64,000 nt of DNA, taken from NCBI GenBank assembly GCA_963816185.1, contig CAWFJJ010000024.1:160001-224000 (forward strand), written 5' to 3'. The position numbers and the translations under genes were made by a program. The notes below the pieces were generated by a model. It saw nothing but the letters and a program-made list of their open reading frames with translations. It had not been told where the DNA came from and searched no databases. Source of the stretch: Thermoanaerobaculia bacterium (GTDB taxonomy: Bacteria; Acidobacteriota; Thermoanaerobaculia; UBA5066). Numbering within the stretch: position 1 is the stretch's first letter; every line of letters begins with the position of its first letter. Below, in pieces: positions 5,185 through 58,731 of this stretch.

Positions 5185-6298
5185 ATGCGCGCCCTCGTCT
5201 CCGAGGGGGCCGGAGCGCTCGCGCTCCGCGAAGTCGCGACCCCTCGGCCGGGGCCGGGTGAGGTCCTCGTGCGCGTCGGCGTCGCGCTCACGTGCGCGAC
5301 CGACTTCAAGTCGCCGCGCGGCCATCCGAAATTTCCGTTTCCGCTCGCGCTCGGGCACGAGTTCGCGGGGGTCGTCGAGGCGGCGGGCTCCGGAGCGCCC
5401 TTTTCGCCCCCGGGGAGCATGTGACCTCGGCGGTATCCGGCCCCTGCGGGCGTTGCGACGACTGCCATCGGGGGCGGGAGAACCTCTGCGCCACCGCGTT
5501 CGAGAGGCCGCTCTTCGGCGCCTTCGCGGACTTTCTCCTCGTCCCGGAGCGCATCGTGAGGAACGGCCTCAGAAGAATCCCGCAGGGCCTCTCCGATGAG
5601 GCGGCCGCGCTCCTGGATCCGCTCGCGAGCGTGGTGCACGCACTGAATCGGGTGAAGGCGCAGGACGGCGAGGACGTTCTCATCGTGGGCACCGGCCCGA
5701 TCGCCGCCATGATGTTTCTTCTCTTGCGGGGGAAGGAGCGAGAAAGAAGAGAGAGGGAGCCGGAAGCGGAGAAGCACGTCGGATCGTCGTGGCGGGAAGG
5801 AGAGAGGAGAGGCTCGTTTTCTTCGAAAGGATGAACGCTGAGGTTGCGCACATCGCGGGCTCGCCGCGTGACCCGCAGGCCGAAGCTCGGCTACCCCTAC
5901 TCACCTTCGAAGAAATCCACCCTTACCCGAGCGCATCGAACGCAAGCGCGGAGAGGGAGAAAAATTCTCTCTGATCATCGACACGACGGGAGACTCCGGT
6001 GTGATCTCGGAGCTGCCGGCGCTCGCCGCGAATGGGGGCACGGTGCTGCTCTTCGCGGGGATGCACGAGGGCGCGCGCGTGAGCGTGGACGCCTACGCGC
6101 TGCACTATCGCGAGGTGTCGATGGCGGGCTCGTTCCACTACACGCCGGGCGACGTGGATGCGGCCTTCGCGCTTCTCGCCGGCGGCGCGATCCCCGTCGA
6201 GCTCTCTCGTCGAGGAGAGGCGGAGGCTCGCCCAATGGCGCGAAGCGTTCGACCTCGTCGAGAGAGGAGCCGCGATGAAGGTGGCTCTCGTCCCGTGA
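5185..6298 (+). CDS. Zn-dependent medium-chain alcohol/polyol dehydrogenase, frameshifted, with low-complexity insertions
   Basis: TCATDFK, LGHEFAG, structural Zn site CGRCDDC..ENLC, VLIVGTGPIA, C-terminal MKVALVP. Confidence 0.8.
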
Positions 6299-7311
6299 AG
6301 GCCGTCCTCGTCCGCTCGCTCGACGACGTGGCCGTGGTGGAGATGGAGAGGCCGGTCCCAGGCCCCGGCGAAATCGTCGTCGCGATGAAGGCCGTGGGGA
6401 TCTGTGGCAGCGATACGACGCCGTGGTACGTTGCCTCGAAGGCGCCGGTCGTTCTCGGTCACGAGCCGGCGGGAGTCGTCGCCGAGGCCGGAGCTCTCGT
6501 CACTGCGCTCCGGACGGGCGACCGCGTCGTCGTGCACCACCACGCGGCCTGCGGCACCTGCCGCTTCTGCCGCGCCGGGGAGGACGTGATGTGTCCCGAG
6601 TGGAAGAAGGCGCGCCTCCATCCCGGCGGGCTCGCCGAGTACGTCCGCGTCGAGGCGGCCGCCGTCGCCACGGACACCCTGCGGCTTCCGGACTCCCTTT
6701 CCTTCGAAGACGGCGCGCTCGTCGAGCCGCTCGCGTGCGCCGTGAAGGCCGTCCGCCGGGCGCGGGTTAGGGCCGGGGATTCCGTCGCGGTGATCGGACT
6801 GGGGGCCAACGGCATCCTACTTGGCCTCGTCGCGAGGAACGCGGGCGCCGCGACGCTCGTCGGCTGCGATCCCGATCCCGCGCGGAGAGCGCACGCGCGT
6901 CGACTGGGCTTCGATGAGGCGGGAGAGCCCGGAAGAGATTTCTCTGAGAAGGTGAAGAGAGCCTCGGCGATCGGGGCCGACGTGGTCTTCGTACTGCCGA
7001 CCGCCGAAGCGGCCGTGCTTTCTTCTCTCGATGCGGCGGGCTCCGCCGGCCGCGTCGTCTTCTATTCGCCGGTCGAGCCCTCGAAGACGTGGCGGCTCTC
7101 CCCTCATTCGTTGTATCTCCGGGATCTCGCTCTTCTCTTCAGCTACTCCTCCGGCGCGCGGGACCTCCGGGAGGCGGTGGCGCTGCTCGAGTGCGGCGCG
7201 GTCCGTGCCCAGGACCTCGTGACGAACCGCGTCCCGCTCGTGCGGGCCGCCGAGGCCTTCGCGATGGCGCGGCAGGGGGGCGACGTCCTCAAGGTCGTCG
7301 TGACCTTCTGA
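6295..7311 (+). CDS. Zn-dependent medium-chain alcohol/polyol dehydrogenase
   Basis: GICGSD, LGHEPAG, CGTCRFC..VMC, VEPLACA, VIGLGANG; GTG start overlaps the previous stop. Confidence 0.88.
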   Translation: MKAVLVRSLDDVAVVEMERPVPGPGEIVVAMKAVGICGSDTTPWYVASKAPVVLGHEPAGVVAEAGALVTALRTGDRVVVHHHAACGTCRFCRAGEDVMCPEWKKARLHPGGLAEYVRVEAAAVATDTLRLPDSLSFEDGALVEPLACAVKAVRRARVRAGDSVAVIGLGANGILLGLVARNAGAATLVGCDPDPARRAHARRLGFDEAGEPGRDFSEKVKRASAIGADVVFVLPTAEAAVLSSLDAAGSAGRVVFYSPVEPSKTWRLSPHSLYLRDLALLFSYSSGARDLREAVALLECGAVRAQDLVTNRVPLVRAAEAFAMARQGGDVLKVVVTF

Positions 7312-8057
7312 AGAAGCGTCTCGACGTCGTCCTCGTGGAGCGCGCTCTCGCGGAATCGCGGACGCGGGCCGGGGCGCTCATCCTCGCGGGCCGGGTTTCG
7401 GTCGCCGGCCACGAGCGGGTGAAGCCGGGCACGCTCGTGGCGGAGGATGCCGAGATCGCGGTCGGAGAGCCGGAGCATCCCTGGGTCTCGCGCGGGGGCG
7501 TGAAGCTGGATTACGGCCTGACCCACTTCGGGATCGAGCCGAAGGGGCGGATCTGTCTCGACCTCGGTGCGTCGACGGGAGGCTTCACGGACGTGCTCCT
7601 CGCGCGCGGCGCCGCGCGCGTCTACGCCCTGGACGTGGGTTACGGGCAGCTCCATGGCCGCCTCCGTAGCGACCCGCGTGTCGTCTTGCGCGAGAAAGTG
7701 AACGCGCGGTTCCTGACGCGGGCCGACGTGCCCGAGGCTCCCTCGCTTCTCGTGGCGGACCTGTCGTTCATCTCGCTCACCCTCGTCCTGCCGGCGGCCG
7801 TGCCGCTTCTCGCGGAAGAGGCCGACGTGCTCGTCCTCGTCAAGCCGCAGTTCGAGGCGGCGCGTCGGGAGGTCGGTCGCGGCGGCATCGTGCGCGACGA
7901 GGGCGTGCGCGCGCGGGCTCTCGCGCGCGTGACGGCGGCCGGCGAGCGGCTCTCTCTCACGAGCCGCGGGGCGATCCCTTCGCCGATCACGGGAGCGGAG
8001 GGAAACGTCGAGCTCCTCGCGGCGTTCCGCCGGAATCCCGCTACACTTCCGGGGTGA
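7308..8057 (+). CDS. tlyA: TlyA family rRNA 2'-O-methyltransferase (apparent CTG start)
   Basis: KKRLDVVLVER S4 domain, WVSRGGVKL, LDLGASTGGFTD, DLSFISL, LVKPQFEA, SPITGAEGNVE. Confidence 0.92.
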   Translation: MKKRLDVVLVERALAESRTRAGALILAGRVSVAGHERVKPGTLVAEDAEIAVGEPEHPWVSRGGVKLDYGLTHFGIEPKGRICLDLGASTGGFTDVLLARGAARVYALDVGYGQLHGRLRSDPRVVLREKVNARFLTRADVPEAPSLLVADLSFISLTLVLPAAVPLLAEEADVLVLVKPQFEAARREVGRGGIVRDEGVRARALARVTAAGERLSLTSRGAIPSPITGAEGNVELLAAFRRNPATLPG

Positions 8058-8953
8058 AATCCGGGGTGCGGCCGGGCCGTCGCGTGCGGCGAGTGGGTCT
8101 CGTGACGCGCTACAGCAGCGCGGCGGCGATCGCCCTTTCGCGCAAGCTCGAGCGCCAGCTCCGGCGCCGCGGGATCACGGTGATCCACGATGTCGAGTCG
8201 TCGCGGGCCCGCGGCGTCTCGGGCGGGGCGCCCCGCGCGCAGATCGCGCGTCTCGTGGATCTCGTCGTAACGCTCGGGGGAGACGGAACGCTCCTCTCGG
8301 TGGCGCGCCATCCGGCGCCCGGCGTCGCCGTCCTGGGGATCGACATTGGCACGCTCGGCTTCCTGACGACCTGCAGGCCGGACGAGTCGGCGGAGGTGCT
8401 CGAGAGGGCGCTCGCGGGAACGGCGCACATCGAGAGGCGGCGCCTGCTCTCGGTGCGTGTGACGGAGCGCAGTCGCGCGCCGCGGCGCTACCGCGTCGTG
8501 AACGACGCCGTTCTCGCGAAGTCGGCGCTCGCGCGCATCGCGACGATCCGCGTCGACGTCGATGGCCGCATGGTGTCGCGATATCGCGGAGACGGGCTCA
8601 TCGTGTCGACGCCGACTGGCTCCACCGCGTACAACCTCTCGGCGGGCGGGCCCATTCTCGAGCCGACCCTGCCGGCGCTGGTTCTCACGCCGGTGTGCCC
8701 GCACACGTTGACGCTGCGTCCGCTCGTTCTCCCGGACTCCGTCCGCCTCGACCTGTCGGTGGAGAACGACCCCACGGACGTATTCCTGACGCTCGACGGC
8801 CAGGAAGGATTCCCGGTTGGCTCCTTGACGCGCATCGCGATCGCCCGGTCCTCCGAGACGATCTCTCTCGTGCGGGCCTCGGAGGCGTCCTTCTTCGAGG
8901 TCCTCGCCCGGAAGCTCTCGTTCGGCGGCGAGCGGGAGAACGCGGCTCGGTAA
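8054..8953 (+). CDS. nadK: NAD(+) kinase
   Basis: LGGDGTLL, GTLGFL, VVND, GDGLIVSTPTGSTAYNLSAGGP, PVCPH. Confidence 0.95.
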   Translation: MKSGVRPGRRVRRVGLVTRYSSAAAIALSRKLERQLRRRGITVIHDVESSRARGVSGGAPRAQIARLVDLVVTLGGDGTLLSVARHPAPGVAVLGIDIGTLGFLTTCRPDESAEVLERALAGTAHIERRRLLSVRVTERSRAPRRYRVVNDAVLAKSALARIATIRVDVDGRMVSRYRGDGLIVSTPTGSTAYNLSAGGPILEPTLPALVLTPVCPHTLTLRPLVLPDSVRLDLSVENDPTDVFLTLDGQEGFPVGSLTRIAIARSSETISLVRASEASFFEVLARKLSFGGERENAAR

Positions 8954-8960
8954 CGAGGAG

Positions 8961-11900
8961 ATGCGCCGCCTCCCGCACCTCTCCCTCACGCAGGTCCGGC
9001 TCGTCCGTCTCTTCACGCTTCTTCTCGTCTTCACCGTCCTCGTCCTGTATGCGGTTTTCCGCTCCTCGCGTTTCCAGGAACTTCTCCGCCGCCGGACCGA
9101 AAGGCTGGTGACGGCGAAGATCGGACGGACCGTCACCATCGGGAGCTTCGACCTCGCGCTCGTCCCGTTCGCGTTTCTCGTGCGCGATGTCGCCGTGGCG
9201 AACGACCGGCGGGGTCTCTCCGGTCCGGCGTTCTCGGCTTCCGAAATCGAGCTGCGCGGCTTGCCGACCATCACGAGCCGCCACATCGACATCCCGAAGC
9301 TCCGCGTGGTTTCGCCGCGCGTGGTCGTCGAGGTATTCCCGGACGGGACGACGAATCTGAAGCCGGTTCTCGATGCCCTCGTGGGAGGAGGCGGCGGAGG
9401 CCTCGACGTCCGCCTTCAGGAGGCGGTCATCCAGCGCGCGACCCTTCGCTTCCGGGAATGGGACGCCGAGATCGACGCGATCCTCCAGGACGCGGCGGTC
9501 ACGGCCAGAGCCGGCCGCAGCCGGACGGTGACTCACCTTGCGCTCGCGTGTCGCAAGGGGCGCTTCAAGCTCGAGGACAACGAGACACTCGACTTCGCGA
9601 TTGGCGCGGAGGTGACGCTCGCGCCGGGGCGCGTGCACCTGACAGGCCTGAGGCTGCGCGGCGACCGGCTGAAGCTCGAGGCTTCGGGCGGCGTCGACGA
9701 TCTCAAGAAACCGATCCTCGCTCTCGTCGCCCGCGCCGAGACGACCGGCGAGACCCTTTCGAAAGTATTCGGGCTCGGCCTTCCGCTCACGGGCGCCGTG
9801 AGGATGCGCGGCACGCTGCGCTTCGGCGAGCCGGGCGGCTTCCGCATCTTCGGAGCTTTCGATCTCGACGCCGCCGCGTTCGGCCCGTTCCCGATGACGG
9901 GCGAGGGCGTGATTCGCGTGGACCCGAACGGCCTTCTCGTGAACGTGACGCGCGCGAGCTACGCGGGCGGAGCGCTGGAGGCCGTCGTCCGCCTCGAGAG
10001 GATCAAGAACCCGCCGCTTCCGGTTCGCATCGCGCTGCGCGGGCGCGGCCTCGACTTCGAGCAGTTCTTCTCAGACCTCGGGCTCAAGGGAACGGGGCTC
10101 ATGGGACGCGCCGACCTCGACTCGACCCTCACGTTCGGGCGCGGCGGAATCGAGCATGCCGACGGGATCGGACGGATCCACCTGACGGCCGACGGGGGAC
10201 GGCCCTCGGCGGTCAAGGGACGGTTCGCGCTGCCCGTTTCCGGAGGCGGTCCCCTCGAGGTCCGCGACGGCCAGCTCCTCTTCCGGGCGTCACGTTCGCG
10301 ACGGCCGGAGGTGCCCGGATCCGCGTCGACGGTGGGCTGCGCCTCGGAACCTGGCAGCCCGACCTTCAGCTGGAGATCGCCTCCGACGACCTCGCGGAGG
10401 TTGAGCGGATCGCGGACAACTTCTATCCCGCCATCCAGAACGGAGCCCTTGACGCCGCCCCTCGGACCTCGGAGGAGCGGGGCGGATCGTCGCGCACCTC
10501 TCTCGCAGCTTCTCCGATCCGCGGGTCGAGGGGCGGCTGTCCGCTTCGGGTTTCGTGCTTCGAGGCGTGCCGTTCGGGACGGCCTCGGCCGGGTTCTCGT
10601 GGACCGGAACGTGGCGGCGTTCTCGCCTTTCACAGCGACGGACGGAGGCGGCTCTGTCACCGTCACCGGGAAGATCGGCTGGGGCGGGGCCCTCAAGGAC
10701 GAGTATCGCCTGGATGGCCTCGTGGCGGAGTTTTCCGCATGGCCCATCGAGCGCGTGCTGAAGTTCCTCGATCTCGACCTGCCGATCACCGGCGCGGGCA
10801 CCGGACGGCTTCCGCTCGATGGCGTGACCCCGGCTCTGTCGGGCCGGATTCCGCTCGTCCTGACCGACGCGACCCTGTGGGGGCAGAAGCTCGACCGGCT
10901 GGAAGGCATGCTGGCCTTCGAGAAGGACCGGATCGTGGTCGAGAACGCGACGGCGCGTCTCGCGGACGGCGCCGCGACCGGGGGTGGCTTCTATCGATAT
11001 GCCGACCGCGCTTATGGACTCGATCTCGACGTCCAGGCCATTCCCGTCGCCCGCCTGGATGCGGCCGGCGGACTGTCGCTCACGGGGATCCTTTCGGGGC
11101 AGGTGACGGGGTCCGGGACGGTGGACAAGCCGAATCTCGACATCTCGGCGACGCGTCGCCGATGCGACGTGGAGCGGGAGTCCGCTCGAGCGCCAGGGCA
11201 CGGAGCTCGAGCTCCGGGTGACGGCCGACCGAGGCGCGTTCACTCTCTTCGCGCGCGCTCCCGAAGCGGCCGAGATCAGACTCGCGCCAGACGGACCGAG
11301 GGGCGATGGCGCGGCCGTGTCGAGGTGACGTCCCTGGCGCCGTTCGCGTCGCTGCTGGGCCTGCCCGAGGACGCCCGTCTCGATGGGCGGCTCTCCGCCG
11401 AGGCGTCGCTCTCCCCGGGAAGGATATGAACGCCCTGCGAGGGGAGGGCAAGGTTTCGGCGGCGCGCGTCACGGCCTACGGGCGGACGCTCGAGCTCCGC
11501 TCGCCGGCGCCGCTCAAGGTGGAGAACGGAAAGGTCTTTCTCGAACGGCTGACGCTCGCGGAGATGCCGCGCGAGGATTTGCCTCCGGCGCCGCCGACGA
11601 CTCTCACGATCTCGGGCAGCGCCGGGCTGAGCGCGCCGCACGCGCTCGACCTTTTCGCCGTCGGCTCGTTCGACGCCGCGCTTCTCAAGCCGGCGCTCGA
11701 GGGAATGAACGCGGCCGGGCGCGCGACCGTGGACCTCAGGGTGGGCGGAACTGCTGCCAAGCCGGCGCTCCTCGGCCGGGTCGCGCTCGACGGCATAGAC
11801 CTCTCCTCGCCGGGCGGCGCCGCGTTCGAGTCGATCACGGGAACGCTCCTGTTCTCGGAGGATCGCATCACCGTCGGAGAGCCTCTCGGTCCGGTACAAC

Positions 11901-12944
11901 GGCGGGACGGTGGATCTCGGGGGCTTCATCGCACTGACCGGCCTCAAGCCCACGTCCTTCCGGCTGAGCGCGCACGTCGGGCACGTCCGCGCGTCTCCGT
12001 TCGACGGATTCCGGGCAACGTTCTCCGGCGATCTCGTGCTTCTGGGCGACACGCTCCTCCGCACGGCGCGCGGGGACCTCTCCTTCGACCGGGCGGTCTA
12101 CAGCCGCGACTTCTCGCTGGACATCGCATCGCTCCTGGCGCGAAAGCGCGCCGCCGTCACGAGCGGGAACCCGACGGCGTTCGACGCCGTCGAGCTCGAC
12201 GTCCGCCTCGTCGCGCCGGCGTCCTCCATCGAGGTACGCAACAACGTGGCTCGCCTGAAGCTCTCGGGCGAGCTTTTCATGCGCGGAACATGGGGCCATC
12301 CGCTCCTGTTCGGCGAGATCACGGCCGAAGAGGGTGGCCGCCTCACGCTGCAGGGCCAGCGTTACGAGATCCTGTCGGCCAAGGTCCTCTTCTCGAACCC
12401 GCTGCGCATCGAGCCCTTCTTCGAGCTCGAGGCGCGGGGAACCGTGAGCCGGTACCAGATCTCGTTCGGCCTCACGGGCACGCCTTCGCGCCTCGTGCCG
12501 ACGTTCTCCTCGGACCCGCAGCTCTCCGAGGCGCAGATCGTCTCGCTGATGACCTCGGGCGACATTCCGCAGAGCGCCGTCGCGGGAGCGCCCGTCGGGG
12601 CGGTGCCGATCTCGTCCGACGAATCCGTGTCGAAGGCGGCGCGCGAGCTCCTCGCGAGCCTCGCGACCTCGGCGGTCACGAGCCGGACGAAGGAGTTCTT
12701 CCGGCTGGACCGGCTCCAGATCGACCCCACGATCACGGGTACGTCGTTCGACGCGCCGCGCGTCACGGTCGGCAAGAGCCTCGGCAAGAACTTCAACGGG
12801 ACGGTCTCTTTCGTGCTGTCGAGCAACCAGCAGCAGATCATCACCCTCGACTATCAGCTCACCCCCGCGGCCCTCGTTCAGGCCCGGCTCGACGAAAACG
12901 GGATCTACTCGCTCGAGCTGCGCATCCGGCAGCGGCTGCGATGA
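8961..12944 (+). CDS. tamB: TamB/AsmA-like translocation and assembly module protein (several frameshifts)
   Basis: N-terminal membrane anchor, long beta-taco-like repeats, C-terminal DUF490-like region (SDPQLSEAQIVSL, VTVGKSLG); next to an Omp85 gene. Confidence 0.8.
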
Positions 12945-15738: not shown

Positions 15739-15748
15739 GGCCCGGGCT

Positions 15749-15754
15749 TAGAAT
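15749..15754 (+). promoter_or_regulatory. Candidate -10 hexamer TAGAAT for a leaderless transcript
   Basis: TAGAAT lies 5 nt before ATG 15760, with no Shine-Dalgarno sequence. Confidence 0.5.
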
Positions 15755-15759
15755 GGTTC

Positions 15760-17239
15760 ATGCCCCGCTTCACGGTTCTCGAGACTTCGGCCCTCTTCTC
15801 GAACCGGGTCAAGTACGACTACCTGTTCGAGATGGAGATGTGGCTGAAAGGCCTCGAGCGGTTCTTCCAGATCGACTGCCTGCCGCTCTCGGCCTTCGAG
15901 CGTTCGCACGCGTCGCTCAAGAACTACGTGGAGGAGGTGGGCGCCGTGCGCGCCGGCGTGGCCTACATGGCGATGCTCACGACGCAGCTCCTCGGGGAGG
16001 GCAAGGAAGACCTCGCGTCGTTCCTCGTGTACCTGGACAGCCAGGTCGCGCGGACGGGCAGCGGCGAGATGCCTGCGCGCCGCCGCGGAGAACGCCGAGA
16101 CGGAGCTCGCGCTCGTCGTCGAGAAGCTCGAGGATTTCGCGAAGATCCTCGACGAGCTCTCGCGCGCGCCGTTCGTCGCGCTCCAGACGTATCTGTCGCT
16201 CGGCCGGATCGTGGTCGGCACGCTCCGGCAGGACCCGAATCTCGGCGTCCTCTTCCGCGAGAACCTGCGGCCGGTCCTCGACAAGGAGTCGAAGCAGTCG
16301 CTCGGCCGGGTGCTCGAGAGCCTGCCCGACCCTTCGCACCGGGGGGCGCTCGCGGCGCTCTTCGTCGCGCTCTTCAAGGGGTTGCGCTACGCGGACCGGG
16401 CTCGCACCGCCGCCGAGTCGCCCGCCACGCGCACCCGCGCGCTTCTCGTCTTCAGCCTCCTCAAGGGAGAGAGCGAGTCCATCGCCTCGTTCATCTCGAA
16501 GCGCCTCGCGCCGCGCTTCCCGGAGGGGTCGCCCCAGGCCGCCGGGCTGCGGCGCATCGTGACCGCGTTCGAGGCGGAGGTGAAGAAGGTCATGGACGTC
16601 GAGCTCGTCGACGTCGTGCTCATGAAGGATCCGGCTCTCGTCCTCACGCGCCTCGAGGATGCGGCCGCCCTCGTGCGCGACCTTTACCAGCAGAGCGTCA
16701 TCTCGCTCGCCGAGACCTTCTCGTCCGGGCTCGACGAGCGCACGCTCTTCCCCGAGTACCGGACGCGGCTCGACCAGAGCCTCGTTCTGAGGGACGAGCT
16801 CTCTCAGCTCGTGAAGGCGACCCATGATTTCGTGAAGACGCCCGACAAGAAATCGCTGCGGACTCTCGTGGCCGAGCTCGAGTCCTTCCGCCGGAGCGGG
16901 ATGCGCCACCTCATGTTCAAGGACTGGTCCTTGTTCGAGCGTTTCCTCGCCGGCTTCTCTCGCGAGCGGCCTCCGAGGTCCTTCCTGCCGGCCGCGCACC
17001 AGTTCGAGGGCTTTCTGAAGACTCTCGTCAAGGAGATCGGCAAAAGGTCCGTCCTCGCGAATCATCCCTTCAAGGGATTCCGCCTCGAGCGGCGGCTCGC
17101 CGGCTGGCGGGCCGGGCGCCTCCCGGTACAATTGACGGCTGGCGGCCGCCGCGCCGTCCCGATTCCGAAAGGAAGAAGAACGTGGGATTCGTTTCCGTCA
17201 CGCAGGCAGCGGCTGCCTACAAGCAGGGCCGCTTCGTGA
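15760..17239 (+). CDS. Hypothetical, largely alpha-helical protein (frameshift near 16085; true stop may be near 17100-17135)
   Basis: Genome-typical codon usage continues from the 15760 frame into the 16211 frame; no recognisable motif. Confidence 0.7.
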
Positions 17240-18465: not shown

Positions 18466-18521
18466 AGGCGCAGGGGGAGGGGTCCGGGGATCTTAGAAGG
18501 AAGGGCCTGTGCGAGCGGCCG

Positions 18522-19261
18522 TCAGCGGCGATATCGCTCCGCAAGCTGCTCGGGCGATTCGCCCCGCCTCGCCTTCCAGAGGATCTTCCAGTTCCCGAGC
18601 ACGGTCTCGTGCGACGCCGCGCTCGAGGTAACGGCGTGGGGAGGTTTCCACCGCGTCCCGGAGAATCTCGATGCGCCCTTCTTTCTTGAGCCTCCTCGCG
18701 AAATCCCAGTCGTCGAGGAGCGGCCAGGGCGGATGGCCGCCGAGCTTCTCGTAGACGTCGCGCCTGACGAACGGAGCCTGGTCGCCGTACGGAACGCGCG
18801 TGAACGCCGTGCGGGCATTCGCCCAGAAGGCGACCCAGCGCATGCGCGCGCCGCCGCCGGAGAAAGACAGCCGGAACGCGCCGCCGACGGCCCGCGAGGC
18901 GATCGCGCGGCGGATCGCCTGCTCCCAGCCGGCGGGCAGCAGCGTGTCGGCGTGAAGAAAGAGGAAGATGTCTGCTGAAGAGGAAGAAGAAGAGGAAGAA
19001 GACGATTCTTTGAAGGTGAAGAGGGCCGCCTCGCGCAGGCGCTGTCCGCGCGCCGCGTGCGACAGGTGGATACGAGCCCCTGCACGCGCGAAGGCCTCAC
19101 ACACATTCGAAGAAATCTCCGAATCTGCCGCGACGACGAGCGAAACGGGTCCCGCCGCCTGCCAGAACCCTCTCGAAGAAAATCCCCGGTGGGGGACCTT
19201 CGCCGGCCGCCACGGGGACGATGACCGCGATGCGATCCGAAGCCGGCGACGGCGGTACCAT
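18522..19261 (-). CDS. Family 2 glycosyltransferase (TIGR04283-like), frameshifted
   Basis: IAVIVPV, FLFLHADTLLP, PYGDQAPFVRRDVYEKLGG, DDWDFARRL, TSPRRY; start uncertain. Confidence 0.82.
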
Positions 19262-19270
19262 CCCGCCACG

Positions 19271-20020
19271 ATGCCATACGGGTTCGTCCTCGTGGGCGGT
19301 CGCTCGGAGCGGATGGGCCGCGACAAGACGCGCCTGCCCTACCGGGGAGTCCCGATGGCGCTCCATCAGGCCGAGAAGCTCGCGGTCGTGTGCGGGCGCG
19401 TCGCCCTCGTCGGGAAGGACCCCAAGGCGTTCGGCGACTCCCGCTTTCCCTACGTGACCGACGGTGCGCCCGAGGCGGCCGCGGCGTTCGGCGTCGCCGC
19501 GGCTCTCGCGTTCTCGCCGGAGGAGACGAATCTCGTCCTCGCGGCGGACGTGCCGCGCTGCCCCGAGTCGTTTCTCGCGGCTCTCCTGGACGTCGCCGAA
19601 GCGATTCACGCGCCCGCCGTGGTGCCGGTCTCGGGCGGGCGGGCGCAGCCGCTCTGCGCCGTGTGGCGGCGGTCCGCGCTCGGGCCGCTCCGCTCGCGGC
19701 TCGAGGCCGGCGATTACTCTCTCATCGCGGCGCTCCATGCTTTTCACGCCGTGCTCATCCCCGAGGAGGTCACGGCCGCGATGGCCGGAGGCGCTCCGGC
19801 GAATTTCTTCAACGTCAACACCCCGGAGGAATATGAAGAGCTCGAAAGGGAAGCCCCGGCGGAAGGCCGCGACCGGCGCGGCCGCTCAGCCACCTCGACG
19901 CTGAGGGCCGGGCCCGCATGGTCGACGTGTCGCTCAAGCGGCCGACCCTCCGCACGGCCCGCGCCCGCGCTCTCGTGTCGCTCGGCGGGGCCGCCTTTCT
20001 CGCGCTCGACGCCGCCGTGA
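19271..20020 (+). CDS. mobA: Molybdenum cofactor guanylyltransferase (homology ends near 19850; run-on due to an indel)
   Basis: GFVLVGGRSERMGRDK, LVLAADVP, QPLCAVW, FFNVNTPEEY. Confidence 0.88.
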   Translation: MPYGFVLVGGRSERMGRDKTRLPYRGVPMALHQAEKLAVVCGRVALVGKDPKAFGDSRFPYVTDGAPEAAAAFGVAAALAFSPEETNLVLAADVPRCPESFLAALLDVAEAIHAPAVVPVSGGRAQPLCAVWRRSALGPLRSRLEAGDYSLIAALHAFHAVLIPEEVTAAMAGGAPANFFNVNTPEEYEELEREAPAEGRDRRGRSATSTLRAGPAWSTCRSSGRPSARPAPALSCRSAGPPFSRSTPP

Positions 20021-22850: not shown

Positions 22851-24112
22851 CGGCGGCCACTCCCTCGACCGGCCTCGACGTCCTGCTGGCGGAAGGCGGG
22901 AGGGCGGCCGAGATTCTTCGAGGGAAGAGGATCGGACTTCTCGCGAATGCCGCCTCCGTGACGGCCGGCTTCGTCCCCGCGCCCCGCGCGCTCCTCGGTG
23001 CGGACTACGACGTGCGCGTCCTCTTCGGGCCCGAGCACGGCTTCTGGGGCGCGGCGCAGGACATGGAAGCGGTCGGGCCGGGAGAACCTTCCCGTCTGCC
23101 CGTTATTTCCCTTTACGGTGAGACGTTCGACGACCTGTCGCCGAAGGGCGAGCAACTCGAAAGCATCGACGCCGTCGTGTGCGATCTGCCCGACGTCGGG
23201 AGCCGCTACTACACGTTCGTGTGGACGACGGCGCTGATGATGAAGTCCTGCGCTGCGCGTGGAATTCCAGTCGTCGTCCTCGACCGGCCGAATCCGCTCG
23301 GCGGAGAGGCCGTCGAGGGCAACCTGCCCGAGAACAAGCTGCTCTCCTTCGTCGGTTTGTATCCGGTGCCGGTGCGCCATGGAATGACTCCGGGGGAGAT
23401 CGCGCGCTTCGTGAACGCCGAGCACGGCCTTCGCTGCGACCTCACGGTCGTGCCGATGAAGAGCGGCAAGAGGGTCGCGTCGCGCACGGAGATCGGGGAG
23501 ACGCGGCCCTGGGTGCTGCCGTCCCCGAACATGCCGGCACCCGAAACCGCATGGGTCTATCCCGGCGCCTGCCTCGTCGAGGGCACGAATCTCTCGGAAG
23601 GGCGGGGCACGACGCGCCCCTTCGAGCTCGTCGGGGCGCCGTGGCTTTCCGCCGACGACGCGGCGGATGCGGCGAACGCGCTCGGCCTGTCGGGCGTCGT
23701 CTTCCGGCCTCACGTCTTCAGGCCCACGTTCCAGAAGCACGCCGGAAAGACTTGCGGCGGCGTACAGGCGCACGTGACGGACCGCAGCGCGTTCCGGCCC
23801 TTCGAGGCGTATCTGCGCCTTCTGAAAGCCCTTTACGATCTCGATCCGGACCGCTTTCGCTGGCGGACGGAGACGTACGAATACCGCGACGACGTCCCGG
23901 CGATCGATCTCCTGACGGGCACCGCGACGTTCCGGCGCCTCGTGAGCGAAGGGGCGAGCCTGGACCCCTGGATCGGAAGCTTTCAGGCCGACGATCGCGC
24001 GATTCGCTCGGCAATGCGCGACCGCAGCCTGCTCTATCCCTTCGAAGAAATTCCCCGGTCGTCCTCCTCGTCACCGGCGCCCACGAATCCGGCAAGACGA
24101 CGGTCGCCGTGA
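22847..24112 (+). CDS. namZ: Exo-beta-N-acetylmuramidase NamZ (DUF1343)
   Basis: LFGPEHGFWG, DLPDVGSRYYTF, LDRPNP, RHGMTPGE, PSPNMP, EGTNLSEGRGTTRPFE; homology ends at LLYP near 24040. Confidence 0.88.
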   Translation: MTAATPSTGLDVLLAEGGRAAEILRGKRIGLLANAASVTAGFVPAPRALLGADYDVRVLFGPEHGFWGAAQDMEAVGPGEPSRLPVISLYGETFDDLSPKGEQLESIDAVVCDLPDVGSRYYTFVWTTALMMKSCAARGIPVVVLDRPNPLGGEAVEGNLPENKLLSFVGLYPVPVRHGMTPGEIARFVNAEHGLRCDLTVVPMKSGKRVASRTEIGETRPWVLPSPNMPAPETAWVYPGACLVEGTNLSEGRGTTRPFELVGAPWLSADDAADAANALGLSGVVFRPHVFRPTFQKHAGKTCGGVQAHVTDRSAFRPFEAYLRLLKALYDLDPDRFRWRTETYEYRDDVPAIDLLTGTATFRRLVSEGASLDPWIGSFQADDRAIRSAMRDRSLLYPFEEIPRSSSSSPAPTNPARRRSP

Positions 24113-24613
24113 AGCTCATCGAGGCGTTCGTGAAGGCCGGGCTCGAGTGTGGGCTCCCTCAAGCACACGGACCACGAGTACGAGACGGACGCCCCCGGCA
24201 AGGACTCGCAGCGCCACAAGGCGGCGGGCGCCGAACCCGCGGTCCTCGTCGCCGGGCGGAGAAGCGCGGTGCATCGCGGGCCATCGGAGACTTCTGCTTC
24301 GGACCCGGGTGCGGGCGCCGGCGAGGCTCGCGAGAGACCAGCTCTGTCCGTTTTCTTAGAAGGGGAATATGGGCTTGGCTCGTGTGACATCGTCGTCGTC
24401 GAGGGGTTCCGAAGCGAGGCGTATCCGAAGATCGAAGTCTGCCGCGCGGCCACTGGCCGCGCGGCACTCTGCGAGAACGATCCAAACGTCGTCGCCGTCG
24501 TGACCGACCGGCCGACGAATCACCCTTCTTCCATTCCCCGATTCACTTTCGAAGAAATCCCCGGTTCCCTTCTTCCCTTTCTAAGAAGATCTTCAATTCT
24601 CTTTTCTCTCTAA
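24058..24613 (+). CDS. mobB: Molybdopterin-guanine dinucleotide biosynthesis protein B (no own start codon; frameshift near 24150)
   Basis: Walker A motif VTGAHESGKTT, LKHTDH, GKDSQRH..AGA, DIVVVEGFR..PKIEV, VVAVVTD. Confidence 0.82.
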
Positions 24614-24652
24614 GAAATCCCCGGTCTTCTCCTCTTTCTAGGACAATCCCGG
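24546..24652 (+). repeat. Tandem copies of AAGAAATCCCCGGT with pyrimidine tracts
   Basis: GAAGAAATCCCCGGTTCCCTTCTTCCCTTTCTA at 24551 and TAAGAAATCCCCGGTCTTCTCCTCTTTCTA at 24611. Confidence 0.75.
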
Positions 24653-24656
24653 TTGT

Positions 24657-25610
24657 ATGAAAGCCATCCTCGTCCCCAAGCCCGGCGGACCCGAGGCGCT
24701 CGTCTGGGGTGAGACGCCCGATCCGGTGCCCGGCCCCGGCGAGGTCGTCGTGCGCGTGCGCGCGACAGCCGTAAACCGCGCGGACCTCCTGCAATCACAG
24801 GGCAAGTACCCACCGCCGCCGGGCGCGCCGGAGATCCTCGGGCTCGAGGCGGCCGGTGAGGTGGAGGGGACCGGAGAGCGCGTCTTCTTCCTGCTCGCCG
24901 GAGGCGGCTACGCCGAGAAAGTGGCGGTGCCGCGCGGCATGCTCATGCCGATTCCGCGCTCGCTCTCGTTCGCGGACGCAGCCGCGATTCCCGAGGCCTG
25001 GTTCACCGCGTACCTGAATCTGTTTCAGGAAGGCGGCCTCAGGGCGGGAGAGCGCGTTCTCGTCCACGCGGCCGGTTCGGGCGTCGGGACGGCCGCGATC
25101 CAGCTCGCGAGGCGCGCGGGCGCCTCCGTCGTCGCGACGGCGCGCAGCGCGAAGAAGTGTGTCGCGCTCGTGGCCCTCGGGGCGGACCTCGCCGTCGACA
25201 CGTCTCGCGAGGAGTTCCTGAGCCGCATCGAGCAGACCTTCGGCAAGGAGTCGGTGGACCTCATCCTCGATCCCGTGGGCGGCCCTCTCTTCGCGCCGAA
25301 CCTCAAGGCGCTCCGCCGCGGAGGACGGATCGTTCTCATCGCGAGCATGGCCGGGCCCTCGGCGCAGATCGACCTGCGGATCGTGCTCGTCAAGCGCTTG
25401 CGCATCATCGGATCGACCCTCCGAAGCCGGCCGGTCGCCGAGAAGATCGAGCTCACCGCCGGGTTCGTGAGAGACGTCCTGCCCGGCTTCGCGGACGGCT
25501 CGCTCCTCCCGGTCGTGGACCGGAGCTTCCCGCTGTCCGCGGCCGCCGAGGCCCACCGCCGCATGGCCGCGAACGAGAACGTGGGCAAGATCGTGCTCCT
25601 CGCGGACTGA
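24657..25610 (+). CDS. NAD(P)H-quinone oxidoreductase, PIG3 family
   Basis: VNRADLLQSQGKYPPPPGA, LGLEAAG, GGGYAE, IPEAWFTA, HAAGSGVGTAAIQ, GSTLRSR. Confidence 0.92.
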   Translation: MKAILVPKPGGPEALVWGETPDPVPGPGEVVVRVRATAVNRADLLQSQGKYPPPPGAPEILGLEAAGEVEGTGERVFFLLAGGGYAEKVAVPRGMLMPIPRSLSFADAAAIPEAWFTAYLNLFQEGGLRAGERVLVHAAGSGVGTAAIQLARRAGASVVATARSAKKCVALVALGADLAVDTSREEFLSRIEQTFGKESVDLILDPVGGPLFAPNLKALRRGGRIVLIASMAGPSAQIDLRIVLVKRLRIIGSTLRSRPVAEKIELTAGFVRDVLPGFADGSLLPVVDRSFPLSAAAEAHRRMAANENVGKIVLLAD

Positions 25611-30139: not shown

Positions 30140-30871
30140 TTACCGATAGATGACGATGACTCCCGCGAGGCCCATCTCGCCGAGGGACTCACGAGCAGCT
30201 TCGGCCTCTTCGCGCGTCTTGTAAGGGCCGAACTTCACCCGCTTGAGCCCGCGATATTCCTCGATGTACGGGTTCGGGTAGCGCGCGGCGAGGCGGTTGC
30301 GAAGGCGGACCGCGTTCGCCTCGTCGCCGAACGCGCCGGCCTGGACGGCGAACGCGCCGACCTGCGCGTCGAACGCCCCTGACTCTGGACGGATTGCCGT
30401 ATTCGCGGCGGTCACGGGCGGCGGTTCGTCGGAGCCAGCCCGGACGCGGAAGTTGTCGCCGAGAGTCACGACGCGCAGCGTGATGGGTACGACGCCGTCT
30501 CCGACGGAGGCGATCTCCCGGGCGGCCGCCTTCGAGAGATCCAGGATGCGCCCCGCGACGAACGGCCCGCGGTCGTTGATCCTCACGCGGACGGTCTTCC
30601 CGTTCTTCTCGTTCGTCACGTCCACGACCGTGCCCAAAGGCAGCGTCCGGTGGGCGGCGGAGATCTTCTCGGGCCGGAACGTCTCGCCCGAGGCCGTCGG
30701 CAGCCCGTCGAACTCCTTCCCGTACCACGACGCGTAGCCGCGCTCGGAAGCGGGGAAGGTGACGGAAACGGGTGGCGCAGTTGCCTTCGGAGCGGACGAG
30801 CACGCAAGGATGGAGAGTCCGAAGAGGACGAGAGAGATTTCTTTGAAAGGAAATGGGGCGGGATGCTTCAG
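30140..30871 (-). CDS. rlpA: Septal ring lytic transglycosylase RlpA lipoprotein with SPOR domain (apparent CTG start)
   Basis: Lipobox ILAC, GYASWYG, TASGE, AAHRTLPLG, RINDRGPF, ILDLS, SPOR motif VQAGAF. Confidence 0.9.
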   Translation of the reverse strand: MKHPAPFPFKEISLVLFGLSILACSSAPKATAPPVSVTFPASERGYASWYGKEFDGLPTASGETFRPEKISAAHRTLPLGTVVDVTNEKNGKTVRVRINDRGPFVAGRILDLSKAAAREIASVGDGVVPITLRVVTLGDNFRVRAGSDEPPPVTAANTAIRPESGAFDAQVGAFAVQAGAFGDEANAVRLRNRLAARYPNPYIEEYRGLKRVKFGPYKTREEAEAARESLGEMGLAGVIVIYR

Positions 30872-39672: not shown

Positions 39673-39709
39673 TCCTTCTATTCTGAAGGAGAAAGGACAA
39701 CGGCCTTGC

Positions 39710-44603: not shown

Positions 44604-44606
44604 AGC

Positions 44607-45947: not shown

Positions 45948-46023
45948 GCTGGCGTAGCTCAATGGGTAGAGCAGCCGATTTGTAATCGGCAGGTTGCGGG
46001 TTCGAGTCCCATCGCCAGCTCCA
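45948..46023 (+). tRNA. tRNA-Thr(TGT)
   Basis: Cloverleaf; anticodon arm GCCGA-TTTGTAA-TCGGC; TTCGA T-loop; encoded CCA. Confidence 0.95.
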
Positions 46024-46072
46024 GGGTGAGCCTCCGAGGGCCGGAGATCGGGATCGACGAAGAACGGGGAGC

Positions 46073-46161
46073 GGGCAGATGGCCGAGCGGTTAATGGCAG
46101 CAGACTGTAAATCTGCCGCACCTTGCGTGCTACGGGGGTTCGAATCCCTCTCTGCCCACCA
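46073..46161 (+). tRNA. tRNA-Tyr(GTA)
   Basis: GCAGA-CTGTAAA-TCTGC; long variable arm; encoded CCA. Confidence 0.95.
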
Positions 46162-46210
46162 TCTTTCGCGGCGCGAAAGATGGTGGACAGCTGCCGGCTA
46201 TTTTTTTCTC

Positions 46211-46237
46211 GGGGGTACTGTCCCCCCGAACCCCCCC
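46211..46237 (-). repeat. G-tract hairpin repeat, copy 3
   Basis: Reverse strand reads GGGGGGGTTCGGGGGGACAGTACCCCC. Confidence 0.55.
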
Positions 46238-46255
46238 ACAGGAAAAAGTACGCCG

Positions 46256-46331
46256 GCCCACGTAGCTCAGTTGGTAGAGCACGTCCTTGGTAAGGACGGG
46301 GTCAGCAGTTCAAATCTGCTCGTGGGCTCCA
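46256..46331 (+). tRNA. tRNA-Thr(GGT)
   Basis: Anticodon loop TTGGTAA; acceptor stem GCCCACG/CGTGGGC; encoded CCA. Confidence 0.95.
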
Positions 46332-46346
46332 GCTACGTTTTCTCCA

Positions 46347-46381
46347 GGGGGAACCCGGGGGTCGGGTTCCCCCAAGCCCCC
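46347..46381 (-). repeat. G-tract hairpin repeat, copy 4
   Basis: Reverse strand reads GGGGGCTTGGGGGAACCCGACCCCCGGGTTCCCCC. Confidence 0.55.
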
Positions 46382-46418
46382 TCCGCACCAATCGCTCACT
46401 TCTTCACGGCTTCCTTTC

Positions 46419-46493
46419 GCGGGAGTAACTCAGGGGTAGAGTCACAGCCTTCCAAGCTGTTGGTCGCGGGTTCGAATCCCGTCTCCCGCTCCA
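46419..46493 (+). tRNA. tRNA-Gly(TCC)
   Basis: ACAGC-CTTCCAA-GCTGT; acceptor stem GCGGGAG/CTCCCGC; encoded CCA. Confidence 0.95.
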
Positions 46494-46516
46494 AGAGCTT
46501 CTTTCGACCTTCTCAC

Positions 46517-46594
46517 AGGGGTGTAGCTCCAACTGGCTAGAGCGGCGGTCTCCAAAACCGTAGGTTCGGGGTTCGAATCCCCGCACCCCTGCCA
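46517..46594 (+). tRNA. tRNA-Trp(CCA)
   Basis: GCGGT-CTCCAAA-ACCGT; acceptor stem AGGGGTG/CACCCCT; directly upstream of secE. Confidence 0.95.
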
Positions 46595-47490: not shown

Positions 47491-47499
47491 GGAAGAGAC

Positions 47500-48767: not shown

Positions 48768-48768
48768 C

Positions 48769-49314: not shown

Positions 49315-49338
49315 CGCCGAAGAATCAGGAGAAGAACC

Positions 49339-49719
49339 ATGGCTCTCACCGTTGAAACTTTCATCAAGGAAATCGAGTCGATGTCGGTCCTCGAGCTCAA
49401 CGGGCTCGTGAAGGCCCTCGAGGAGAAGTTCGGCGTGTCCGCCGCGATGATGGCCGCCCCGGCGGCGGCTGCGGGCGCCGCCCCGGCCGCCGCCGCCGCC
49501 GAGGAGCAGACCGAGTTCACGGTCGTTCTCAAGGAAGCCGGCGCGAACAAGATCAACGTCATCAAAGCCGTTCGCGAGGTCAACAGCTCGCTCGGTCTCA
49601 AGGAAGCGAAGGATCTCGTCGAAAATCTCGGGACGGTCAAGGAGGGCATCTCCAAGGACGAGGCCGCCTCGATCAAGAAGAAGTTCGAGGACGCGGGAGC
49701 GAAGGTCACGATCAAGTAA
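49339..49719 (+). CDS. rplL: 50S ribosomal protein L7/L12
   Basis: [37 protein letters not shown]. Confidence 0.97.
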
Positions 49720-49803
49720 CCCTCCCAATCCTTCGTTCTTCGCCGCCCCCATCGCGCGCCTCATTCCCCGGCCTGCGCGCGGCCACGAGAGGGACCTGAC
49801 CCA

Positions 49804-54078
<4,275 letters not shown>

Positions 54079-54093
54079 GGAGAAGAGAGTCAC

Positions 54094-58317
<4,224 letters not shown>

Positions 58318-58456
58318 AGAGGGAGACGAGAGAAGAAGAGAGAAAGAAGAAGACGAAGATTTTCTTCGAATAGGAAGAGCGCCGGATCCATAGCCGCTCG
58401 CTTCACTCGATCGCGCGGCGGTCGCCCGCAGCCCTATTGACGTCTAAGAAATCTCC

Positions 58457-58484
58457 GGGGCCGGCGAAAGCCGGCCTCTTTTCT
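58457..58484 (+). terminator. Intrinsic terminator downstream of rpoC
   Basis: GGGGCCGGC-GAAA-GCCGGCCTC followed by TTTTCT. Confidence 0.7.
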
Positions 58485-58731
58485 CTCTAGCTCCCGCCCC
58501 GAATCGAGCCGTAAGGTTTTCGGACGCCGACCGATTCTCTGACACTTCTCGCGCGCGTCCCCGTCCGTCTTCTTTTCGAGCCTGCCCGGTAACTGCTTGG
58601 CCTGTAACCCTCGAGGCTCTCGTGTCGCCCGCGGGTCGCCGCGACGTCTCTTGGCAGCCCGCCTGCATTGCTCCCTTCATCGGATGGCTTTCTCCCCTGT
58701 ATCGCGGCGCCCACCGGCGCAAGGGGTACGT

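Follow-up and report, generated by a model that had tools for sequence, protein, structure and literature searches.

A 64,000-nucleotide (nt) stretch of a Thermoanaerobaculia genome (assembly G000, contig C24, positions 160001-224000; hereafter the window) displays multiple copies of a short AT-rich sequence, termed here the arm, which is repeated hundreds of times in the genome and is largely organised in inverted pairs with outward-pointing tails. Arms are found on both strands, between genes and within them, in one genus and its sister genus. Inside open reading frames (ORFs) they are translated, the centre base of their core shifts such that stop codons are avoided, and in two conserved proteins the core has arisen by point substitution in native coding sequence. 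The reading favoured here, in which we place about even confidence, is that the motif is a recognition word which builds up in situ under molecular drive or selection. That it is read by a protein, and by which one, we infer.

The G000 assembly consists of 5.09 Mb in 30 contigs with a GC content of 67%. Arms were called with a position-weight matrix (PWM) made from genome-wide copies, at a score of at least 16 unless stated otherwise, and genes with a crude codon-usage gene finder, the called genes representing 86% of the genome. The controls for over-representation were the pattern read backwards and, for the window, 100 dinucleotide-preserving shuffles. The pattern TTCNAAGAA has 10 matches in the window; the shuffles have a mean of 0.80 and a maximum of 4, and 0 of 100 reach 10. 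Genome-wide there are 713 matches, both strands together. The genome-wide PWM scan proposed in an earlier reading of the window (the original prediction) gives 930 arms in G000, 477 on the plus and 453 on the minus strand, versus 223 for the backwards sequence. The 12-mer CCTTCKAAGAAA is present in 206 copies (106 forward, 100 reverse), and its reversed control in 2 (0 and 2). Motif words are the most over-represented 10-mers of the genome; TTCTAAGAAA, at 239 observed versus 0.6 expected by base composition, is the top 10-mer after a poly-T artefact. The words TTCTAAGAA and TTCGAA were considered as candidate base-modification targets.

Read on the purine strand, the arm is about 45 nt long, lineage-specific and polar. 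It consists of a purine-rich tail of ~20-25 nt, followed by (A/T)TTTCTT(A/C)GAAGG, a middle element also given as (A/T)TTTCTTAGAAGG, and then by TGAAGAGGGG. The 9-nt core TTCT-N-AGAA is a palindrome except for its centre base, and the flanks supply the polarity. The original prediction described the core as a TTC-N3-GAA dyad, which is better read as TTCT-N-AGAA with polar flanks. The pyrimidine tail that it described is present as well, C+T being ~0.7-0.85 from +10 to ~+30 around the 713 genome-wide matches.

The back-to-back arrangement of arms seen in the window is a property of the whole genome. The 930 arms include 588 that are paired: there are 294 (-,+) pairs with outward tails and a distance of 20-300 bp, versus 13 (+,-) pairs and 112 same-strand neighbours at the same distances; the other 342 arms are solo. 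Pair spacing is 70-100 bp in 125 of the 294 pairs, with an intergenic mode of 74-78 bp (24 of 92). Within the window, the four pairs measure 87, 100, 195 and 83 bp core to core, where gaps of about 75, 90, 180 and 70 bp had been noted. The complete unit is thus two inverted arms, tails outward, about a unique GC-rich centre; it is two-fold symmetric and ~130 bp long, and its centre is ~44 nt with ~75% GC. Same-strand neighbours form tandem arrays with a period of ~30 nt, for example at 24548-24644. Because of these arrays, and because a decayed older arm is found inside a tail (18973/19009), the tails are, at least in part, degraded or slipped arm copies.

Both coding and non-coding DNA carry arms, as had been predicted: 578 of the 930 are in called ORFs and 352 (38%) are in the 14% of the genome between genes. 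No strand preference is found relative to genes. Paired arms in ORFs are 183 sense and 181 antisense, solo arms 100 and 114; between co-directional genes the paired arms number 85 and 85 and the solo arms 46 and 43. A skew of orientation with replication, as in the polar motifs Chi and KOPS, was assessed through local GC skew; the odds ratio is 0.91 (p 0.61), and gene strand, the positive control, likewise falls short of significance (p 0.11). Arm-free regions include two low-GC stretches of ~50 kb, several small low-GC contigs and one 131-kb stretch of normal GC content.

Of the 20 most arm-rich ORFs, 18 have Pfam matches and two have none. The matches include isoleucyl-tRNA synthetase (IleRS), 2-oxoacid dehydrogenase E2, P-type ATPase, a UvrD-type helicase/nuclease, Ser/Thr kinases and glycosyltransferases. 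In-frame translation of the arms is confirmed in IleRS, in a glycogen-debranching-type enzyme (GDE) and in an alcohol dehydrogenase (ADH), and when the tails are read in the frame of their host gene, S, L, E, A, G and R are the commonest residues. It follows from the genetic code that tracts made up wholly of purines or of pyrimidines, like the TTCGAAGAA form of the core, have no stop codon in any of the six frames. The centre base of the core depends on reading frame. In intergenic arms T is found 230 times and G 96 times, whereas in the sense frame TTC-NAA-GAA, where T would give the stop codon TAA, there are 100 G and 7 T; the two other sense frames are T-rich (33 T/4 G and 78 T/24 G). Stop codons are therefore avoided at the centre base with the rest of the word kept. 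A family of at least 16 Ser/Thr kinase paralogues, at positions 600000-635000 of C24 and at scattered loci, should be noted: all display both arms 93 nt apart, read as EFFE(D/E)...SFEEIPG followed by a Ser-rich stretch, and they inflate the in-ORF pair count. Some long single ORFs also run across seemingly separate genes, e.g., C28:31503-34766 (asd, an amino-acid kinase and dapB) and C1:325252-327861 (a beta-lactamase-type domain and NamZ). Where spacers hold stop-free arms and tails, reading frames may become fused, or ORF callers may simply be misled.

The origin of arms in coding DNA was assessed by alignment of IleRS and GDE with homologues from repeat-free genomes. In IleRS, six of six arm cores are at aligned positions with no insertion or deletion (indel). 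They lie on the native peptides FFE(R/K), in which FF is invariant in all five sequences, FL (invariant), S(R/K)(R/K) and LL(G/A/S)(R/K); over both enzymes the native peptides under the cores include FFE, FL(R/S) and S(R/K)(R/K). In GDE four of five cores are indel-free, and one is in a 5-residue insert. In IleRS the insertions adjoin the cores. YFLSN is followed by one of about 20 residues, mostly Ser, and inserts of 13 and 6 residues precede LLSKKS and EFFER, respectively. At window position 18578, six genomes display an indel-free graded series, GAAACGCCAGAGCGTCC to CGCCTTCCAGAGGATCTT to ACCCTTCTAAGAATCTC. Since 10 of the 11 IleRS and GDE cores are indel-free and the 18578 series is graded, the word is written into conserved coding DNA by substitution; in these two proteins it is written where the protein allows, with the tails added by insertion. 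Outward pairs within native coding DNA are 81-100 bp apart (90 and ~97 nt in IleRS, 81 in GDE, 93 in the kinases). Arms carved from native coding sequence thus keep an outward spacing of 81-99 nt, so the pair geometry belongs to whatever favours the word and is not the leftover of an inserted element.

Retention at orthologous sites, a comparison that the original prediction had proposed, was followed in a six-genome alignment of the syntenic region, in which two nearer genomes have 82-87% column identity to the window and three farther ones 68-71%. The alignment holds 36 arm positions, of which 7 are common to all six genomes and 13 are private to one. For window arms at a PWM score of at least 14 (n=15), the arm is retained in 56 of 75 arm-by-genome combinations, and in 27 of 45 in the three distant genomes (~70% identity). 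Downstream of rpoC the centre varies from 27 to ~75 nt among species, and the arm before a terminator-like hairpin is kept. Public sequencing runs were compared as Logan contigs, which contain at most 0.24 of the sampled words and therefore represent relatives, not the source strain. In these contigs the arm-bearing regions 18931-19283, 23974-24045 and 24483-24657 are too diverged to align at 88%. The arm-bearing patches evolve much faster than their flanks. One related contig (run X6) has ~90-95% identity flanking the same three regions, and across them replaced sequence of similar length.

The centres between paired arms are unrelated to each other, in agreement with the claim that the DNA between pairs is unrelated: among 180 cores the only similarities are kinase paralogues and duplicated contigs. 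Of 137 centres (pairs 55-110 bp apart), 112 have no other match in the genome, and the 25 with a match are, all but one short one, kinase paralogues or duplicated contigs. One centre traced through 29 genomes of the genus has 1-3 matches in each of 18. A slight excess of similarity is found among centres (mean best local score 26.9 versus 22-23 for shuffled or random genic sequences). Intergenic centres have a codon periodicity of 0.189, versus 0.179 when shuffled and 0.423 in random genic segments. Captured genomic or foreign coding DNA was rejected as the nature of the centres, since the genome offers no source for them and the intergenic ones lack codon periodicity. In-ORF centres have GC1/GC2/GC3 of 0.77/0.64/0.79 versus 0.68/0.48/0.88 in ordinary coding DNA, and many of them are therefore not native coding sequence; native coding sequence is mixed in them with filler in which Gly, Ala, Pro and Arg codons abound. 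The original prediction had taken inter-pair DNA to be partly ordinary host coding sequence, which holds for part of the pairs but not on average, the in-ORF cores having a much weaker codon signature. Centres fold slightly better than controls (mean z -0.57 and -0.64 versus -0.08 and -0.10), a weak effect on which strong hairpin centres were dismissed.

The motif is limited to one lineage. The family sample comprised 63 genomes, from the source genus, its sister genus g9 and eight further genera. Every one of the 28 other genomes of the genus has the 14-mer CACCTTCTAAGAAA, as do 5 of 8 sister-genus genomes (2-8 copies each), versus 0 of 26 genomes of the eight further genera. The 12-mer is present in 80-287 copies in each of 12 other genus genomes, where the reversed pattern gives 0-3 matches, and in 0-4 copies in an outgroup of 8 genomes from two other families of the order; this outgroup includes the unpublished G013 and G018, whose data enter the outgroup counts only. 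Four sister-genus genomes hold 39, 24, 4 and 3 copies of the 12-mer, with the same paired architecture and tails. A scan for an 18-mer in one genome per prokaryotic species gave at least 80 matches; among the matches listed, 70 are Thermoanaerobaculia/Acidobacteriota metagenome-assembled genomes (MAGs), 9 are other taxa and 1 is unlabelled.

That the patches are assembly or sequencing artefacts, a possibility raised in the original prediction, is now practically nil. G000 does hold indel errors and one poly-T run of ~1 kb, but the same motif and architecture are found in the 28 other genus genomes, from many independent studies and from short-read and long-read assemblies alike, and in the short-read genome G033 a single frame runs through the ADH region and its two arms. 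The artefact reading is already refuted.

In the favoured reading, a sequence-specific DNA-binding machine of this Thermoanaerobaculia genus would recognise the arm. Point substitutions, under drive or selection, would let the genome gather and retain the word at any place that can tolerate it, within genes as well as between them, and the low-complexity tails would then lengthen and shorten through slippage and local arm duplication. The reading rests on over-representation, strand symmetry, confinement to one lineage, retention at orthologous sites, substitution at tolerant sites, stop-codon avoidance, the two-fold symmetry of the pairs and scarcity in low-GC stretches and in the most conserved genes; the strong differences in copy number from one neighbouring lineage to the next are counted among the signs of a recognition word too. 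As to the reader, an uptake or recombination self-recognition signal is the leading candidate by analogy, and a tentative one. As with uptake sequences, and in agreement with PMC2817400, arms avoid the ribosomal-protein and RNA polymerase genes of the window and the two low-GC stretches of ~50 kb. ComEC, DprA and a ComEA-type HHH domain are encoded in G000, and also in 10-11 of 14 control genomes; competence-type genes are thus weak support. A two-fold symmetric architectural or topological protein, close to the binding or wrapping site that was the first option of the original prediction, ranks second as the reader, at a slightly lower probability. Its second option was the footprint of an insertion or mutational process. 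Cores in conserved proteins have arisen by substitution, as fits drive or selection on a recognition word, and tails and some whole units by insertion, and the data do not separate the two options. The broader claim of an unrecognised DNA-level system other than a classical miniature inverted-repeat transposable element (MITE) stands in so far as the motif is strand-symmetric, confined to one lineage, retained at orthologous sites and able to reshape proteins. A fuller version, for which we see some possibility, well short of an even chance, would be a ~130-bp two-armed symmetric self-recognition signal, read by a dimeric DNA-binding machine and written by drive even into essential genes.

Several observations weigh against an in-place recognition word. 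Three units are each present in one or two of the six syntenic genomes: a unit of ~130 nt at window position 39701 in G003 only, one between nusG and rplK in G034 and G024 only, the G024 copy being almost without a centre, and one in namZ in G034 only. Such whole-unit differences of ~130 nt between species look like insertion or deletion, and differential loss could also produce these presence/absence patterns. Column identity in the core is 0.84 versus 0.70-0.76 in the flanks for the near genomes and 0.64 versus 0.53-0.65 for the far ones (fast multiple alignment), a modest difference because an arm is either kept almost intact or wholly missing. The arms are clustered, with 59 of 238 20-kb windows empty versus 5.8 expected under a Poisson distribution and 155 unit spacings below 500 bp versus 41 expected. 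The density of ~1 arm per 5.5 kb is below that of the uptake signal sequence (USS) or the DNA uptake sequence (DUS). Copy number of the 12-mer has a 3-4-fold range within the genus and runs from 3 to 39 in the sister genus, which fits a proliferating element as well as drifting specificity. The pair geometry, with its outward tails and preferred spacing, is without counterpart in known uptake sequences, Chi or nucleoid-protein sites. The proposed mechanism leaves the outward pair, the patchiness and the gain of units with unique centres unexplained, and the reader is as yet a candidate protein in uncultured organisms in which competence is putative.

The main rival explanation is a non-autonomous palindromic mobile element of foldback type, resembling Rickettsia palindromic elements (RPEs), Correia elements or REPINs, the last being doublets of repetitive extragenic palindromes (REPs). 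It is possible, but we doubt it. Such an element would insert as a unit of ~130 nt (tail, arm, centre, arm, tail), would be stop-free and so survive in ORFs, and would present its arms as ends for a transposase acting in trans. The presence/absence of whole units between species is as expected of it, the three lineage-specific units being spaced at ~70-78 bp by hand count, which is the intergenic mode, and so are the clustering, the tandem arrays, one nested copy and the wide copy-number range between lineages. Consensus units also fold, into stems of 12-27 bp (z -3.2 to -6.0 in three of seven units, -0.7 to -2.2 in the other four), the homopurine/homopyrimidine tracts and the TTCGAAGAA variant are open in six frames, and the base composition at the three codon positions sets many in-ORF centres apart from native coding sequence. 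However, the centres that such an element would carry are single-copy, with 112 of 137 lacking a match and no second copy of the centre of the G003-only unit in G003, and 10 of 11 arm cores in the two conserved proteins have arisen by substitution, not insertion. The ends of the units fade into variable tails, such that a target-site duplication is not definable, and coreless empty-site palindromes are absent (TTCTTAAGAA 0, TTCTTCGAAGAA 1). Complementarity between the two arms of a pair is no higher than after permutation of the arms among pairs, and their centre bases are uncorrelated; covariation of a hairpin was rejected on the same result. The Y1_Tnp family, to which the REP-associated tyrosine transposases (RAYTs) belong, is found in 0 of 13 genus genomes versus 6 of 8 outgroup genomes, and the reverse transcriptase (RT) family RVT_1 in 3 of 13. 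All three long pairs around a single ORF enclose ordinary host genes, and in none of these three candidates is a transposase or an autonomous element bounded by the arms, the families searched being Y1_Tnp and RVT_1 and other transposase families being unsearched. Three narrower versions were discarded: a REP/RAYT system, given the absence of Y1_Tnp from the 13 genomes and the intragenic position of most arms; an RT-driven process, with RVT_1 in so few of them; and a classical MITE, since there is no common core or empty-site palindrome and neither ends nor a target duplication (TA/TWA) could be defined.

The arms may also be considered at the RNA level, as an RNA or single-strand hairpin element that serves as a bidirectional processing or termination signal, either a substrate of RNase III or a C/U-rich tail on which Rho loads; this we regard as improbable. 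A transcript of either strand reads purine tail, arm, centre, arm, pyrimidine tail and can fold to a long stem. The absence of strand bias is compatible with an RNA role because the pairs are symmetric, but the 342 solo arms are unbiased also. One arm lies directly before the conserved terminator-like hairpin downstream of rpoC in several species, and RNase III is described in PMC10969869 as cleaving Correia elements at the inverted repeats. The arms do form stems, but the lack of pair-specific complementarity or centre-base matching noted above applies here too, the units of the window fold weakly (z -0.7 to -1.8), and units are located within the ORFs of essential genes, IleRS among them, in which cutting or ending the transcript would do harm. 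A scan of the window with Rfam gave only five tRNAs, and a known RNA family was rejected with it. A ribosome-binding-site or 5′ untranslated-region role, suggested by copies just before ATG (30839, 24353), was dropped because orientation relative to genes is random, and a promoter was dropped because the hexamer spacing, judged by eye, is unsuitable. The remaining explanation invokes no reader at all, only local slippage of purine/pyrimidine microsatellites and the peptides FEE and FFE conserved within families of paralogues. In its favour, the tails resemble microsatellites and differ in length from species to species, and one kinase family, with both arms in its EFFED...SFEEIPG peptides, accounts for 16 of the 162 in-ORF pairs. 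Slippage, however, does not give a specific word of 12-14 nt with an information-rich core; moreover 352 of 930 arms are in the 14% of the genome outside gene calls, the word is absent from related genera of the same GC content, and the centre base shifts with reading frame while the rest of the word is kept. This explanation is very improbable and already close to refuted.

Among known systems, the USS of Haemophilus are rather evenly spaced, and a compositionally biased flank beside the core of USS and inverted pairs of the DUS of Neisseria are known. Uptake sequences are the closest analogue of the motif described here, and were not among the options of the original prediction. The features of uptake sequences in coding regions, namely frame bias and tolerant positions, are, as described in PMC2817400, like those found here. 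According to PMC2817400, USS and DUS are short polar words, over-represented on both strands, present throughout a genus or family and missing in relatives; they occur in coding and non-coding DNA with a reading-frame bias, prefer poorly conserved positions and originate in place by point substitution; they are scarce in recently acquired DNA. In contrast to USS and DUS, two-thirds of the copies described here are in outward pairs 70-100 bp apart, and they carry long, variable homopurine/homopyrimidine tails that add residues to proteins. The distribution here is also patchy and about five times sparser. The genus belongs to the phylum Acidobacteriota and not to Proteobacteria, and both competence and biased uptake are putative in it.

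Other repeats share part of this anatomy. REPs bind host proteins such as gyrase and IHF. Like the REP/BIME/REPIN-RAYT systems (BIME, bacterial interspersed mosaic element), the arms form hundreds of short lineage-specific inverted doublets with a spacer of tens of bases, but REPs are extragenic GC-rich palindromes with a shared spacer and a RAYT gene, whereas here 578 of 930 arms are in ORFs, the arms are AT-rich and polar, the spacers are unique and Y1_Tnp is found in 0 of 13 genomes. HIP1 of cyanobacteria is a hyper-abundant short word, found in coding and non-coding DNA and retained at orthologous sites; it is a symmetric 8-mer with no tail or pairing. The arms resemble it in abundance and in their orthologous sites, and differ in having a tail and in being paired. 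Correia elements and MITEs are similar in their terminal inverted repeats, short core, hundreds of copies, hairpins and presence/absence among strains, but here no core is shared, neither ends nor a target duplication could be defined, and no cognate transposase was found (Y1_Tnp and RVT_1 searched). RPEs, according to PMC10969869, are ~100-150 bp elements that lie in frame in unrelated and housekeeping genes, are kept at orthologous sites and add peptide segments. The likeness to in-frame palindromic repeats, retained at orthologous sites of unrelated genes including housekeeping genes, is clear; the difference is that RPE copies share their whole sequence and a conserved peptide, whereas in the present repeat sharing is confined to the arms, each centre is unique and most cores in the two conserved proteins are substitutions. 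Full-text searches on repeats of Thermoanaerobaculia and of Acidobacteria gave no description of it. Relative to these systems the new features, as far as we know, are polar AT-rich arms with tails in a GC-rich genome, the outward pair with a unique centre and the deep entry into essential ORFs.

The arm is the most over-represented word across a whole uncultured genus of soil and sediment Acidobacteriota, and it visibly edits proteins, as in the 20-residue poly-Ser insert of IleRS. The repeats explain hypervariable low-complexity patches and apparent gene fusions in these MAGs, and provide a clean lineage marker. To our knowledge, such words have so far always led to a sequence-specific machine, i.e., uptake receptors, RecBCD, FtsK or RAYT. 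Identification of the reader would make DNA exchange or the organisation of the chromosome accessible in bacteria that do not grow in culture, and the paired architecture, with the contrast among sister-genus genomes (24-39 versus 3-4 copies), offers a comparative route to it. If the uptake apparatus is the reader, this would be, as far as we know, the first uptake sequence outside Proteobacteria, with a new paired architecture.

Within the window, 14 arms reach a PWM score of 16. All 14 copies listed in the original prediction are present in the sequence, at or within 2-3 bases of where it had placed them, and four of these are one-mismatch variants: TTCTAAGAT at 18484, CTCGAAGAA at 19171, CTCTAAGAA at 24608 and GTCTAAGAA at 58443. 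The PWM scan adds two new arms, one at 6942-6950 (minus) and a fourth tandem copy at 24636. The hosts of window arms are two zinc-type ADH-like genes, a glycosyltransferase gene of the TIGR04283 family, a NamZ-like gene and mobB.

The first pair is inside a zinc-ADH-like gene (ADH_N matches). Its minus-strand arm (5733..5833) has the core TTCGAAGAA at 5819-5827, a PWM score of 23 and a long tail, purine-rich on the plus strand, at 5733-5818; an orthologous arm is present in four of five syntenic genomes, and it is translated in frame in the short-read genome. Its plus-strand partner (5895..5935, core 5906-5914, PWM 33) has a pyrimidine-rich tail and lies 87 bp away; it is found in five of five syntenic genomes and in 9 of 10 aligned species. 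The solo minus-strand core at 6942..6950 (PWM 20) is inside the second zinc-ADH gene and is kept in five of five syntenic genomes. The weak minus-strand arm TTCTAAGAT, with its one mismatch, is at 18484..18500, just 3′ of the glycosyltransferase gene, and strong arms are found at the aligned place (row 18493) in G034 and G024. Inside the glycosyltransferase gene, which is on the minus strand and has a TIGR04283 match, is the minus-strand arm 18945..19025 (core 19006-19014, PWM 27), whose purine-rich tail at 18945-19005 holds the decayed older arm at ~18973. Its plus-strand partner, 19097..19125 (core 19106-19114, PWM 30), is spaced at 100 bp and is present in four of five syntenic genomes. It is followed on the plus strand by the variant CTCGAAGAAAATCCCCGGT at 19165..19195 (core 19172-19180, PWM 17), present in five of five.

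A plus-strand arm at 24035..24075 (core 24041-24049, PWM 30) lies where the NamZ-like gene, at its C-terminal end, meets the beginning of mobB, and translates as ...FEEIPRSSSSS in the NamZ frame. Inside mobB (MobB match), the minus-strand arm 24340..24370 (core 24353-24361, PWM 28) reads SVFLEGE and is kept in five of five syntenic genomes. The plus-strand tandem array at 24540..24655 consists of four arms with cores at 24548, 24579, 24608 and 24636 (PWM 33, 36, 26 and 18) and a period of ~30 nt. It starts at the 3′ end of mobB and reaches up to the ATG (24657) of the gene that follows, and its first two arms are found in five of five syntenic genomes, the last two in two of five. The minus-strand arm 30815..30852 (core 30839-30847, PWM 30) has a purine tail. 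The centre, partner arm and pyrimidine tail of this unit (30865) are deleted in the window and present in all five syntenic genomes.

From 30847 to 58362 no arm reaches a PWM score of 16, which agrees with the absence of copies from ribosomal-protein and RNA polymerase ORFs noted in the original prediction; the interval includes a tRNA cluster, nusG, rplK, further ribosomal-protein-sized ORFs, rpoB and rpoC. The tRNA genes, at 45948-46594, are Thr-TGT, Tyr-GTA, Thr-GGT, Gly-TCC and Trp-CCA, just upstream of the nusG-rplK-rpoBC region. The last pair begins directly after the rpoC stop codon (58315-58317), with the purine-rich tail of the minus-strand arm 58318..58375 (core 58362-58370, PWM 32). 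Its plus-strand partner is the variant GTCTAAGAAATCTCC at 58436..58460 (core 58445-58453, PWM 15), at a spacing of 83 bp. The arm before the hairpin 3′ of rpoC is found as an exact 8-mer in 6 of the 12 species compared and as near-variants in others. The hairpin itself, at ~58461-58490, is GC-rich, with the sequence GGGGCCGGCG(A/C)AAGCCGGCCCC followed by a T-rich run, and is kept in all 12 species compared; it looks like an intrinsic terminator.

Some irregularities of the G000 assembly were seen in the course of this comparison. An extra base that breaks mobB at 24144 (24144-24150) is missing from the contigs of three public runs, and a base at 17089 is left out in the contigs of all four public runs compared. 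The ADH-like gene at 5125-5975 is split over three to four frames in G000 and is a single frame through both arms in short-read G033; the glycosyltransferase gene at 18522-19330 is also broken by single-base indels in G000. These gene-breaking indels are probably long-read consensus errors. Because the extra base in mobB is missing from public runs and the ADH-like gene has one frame in G033, the frameshifts are a separate matter from the repeats. Contig C10 (15.6 kb, 62% GC) has a T run of ~1 kb from position 1147 to ~2200, in all likelihood an artefact of assembly. Some small contigs repeat, at 82-98% identity, sequence of larger ones: C14 and C24 (C14:18257-19388 versus window 5100-6300), C27 and C25, and C13 and C30. 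It seems that parts of another strain or species from this genus are contained in the G000 bin; no genome of the genus is larger than G000.

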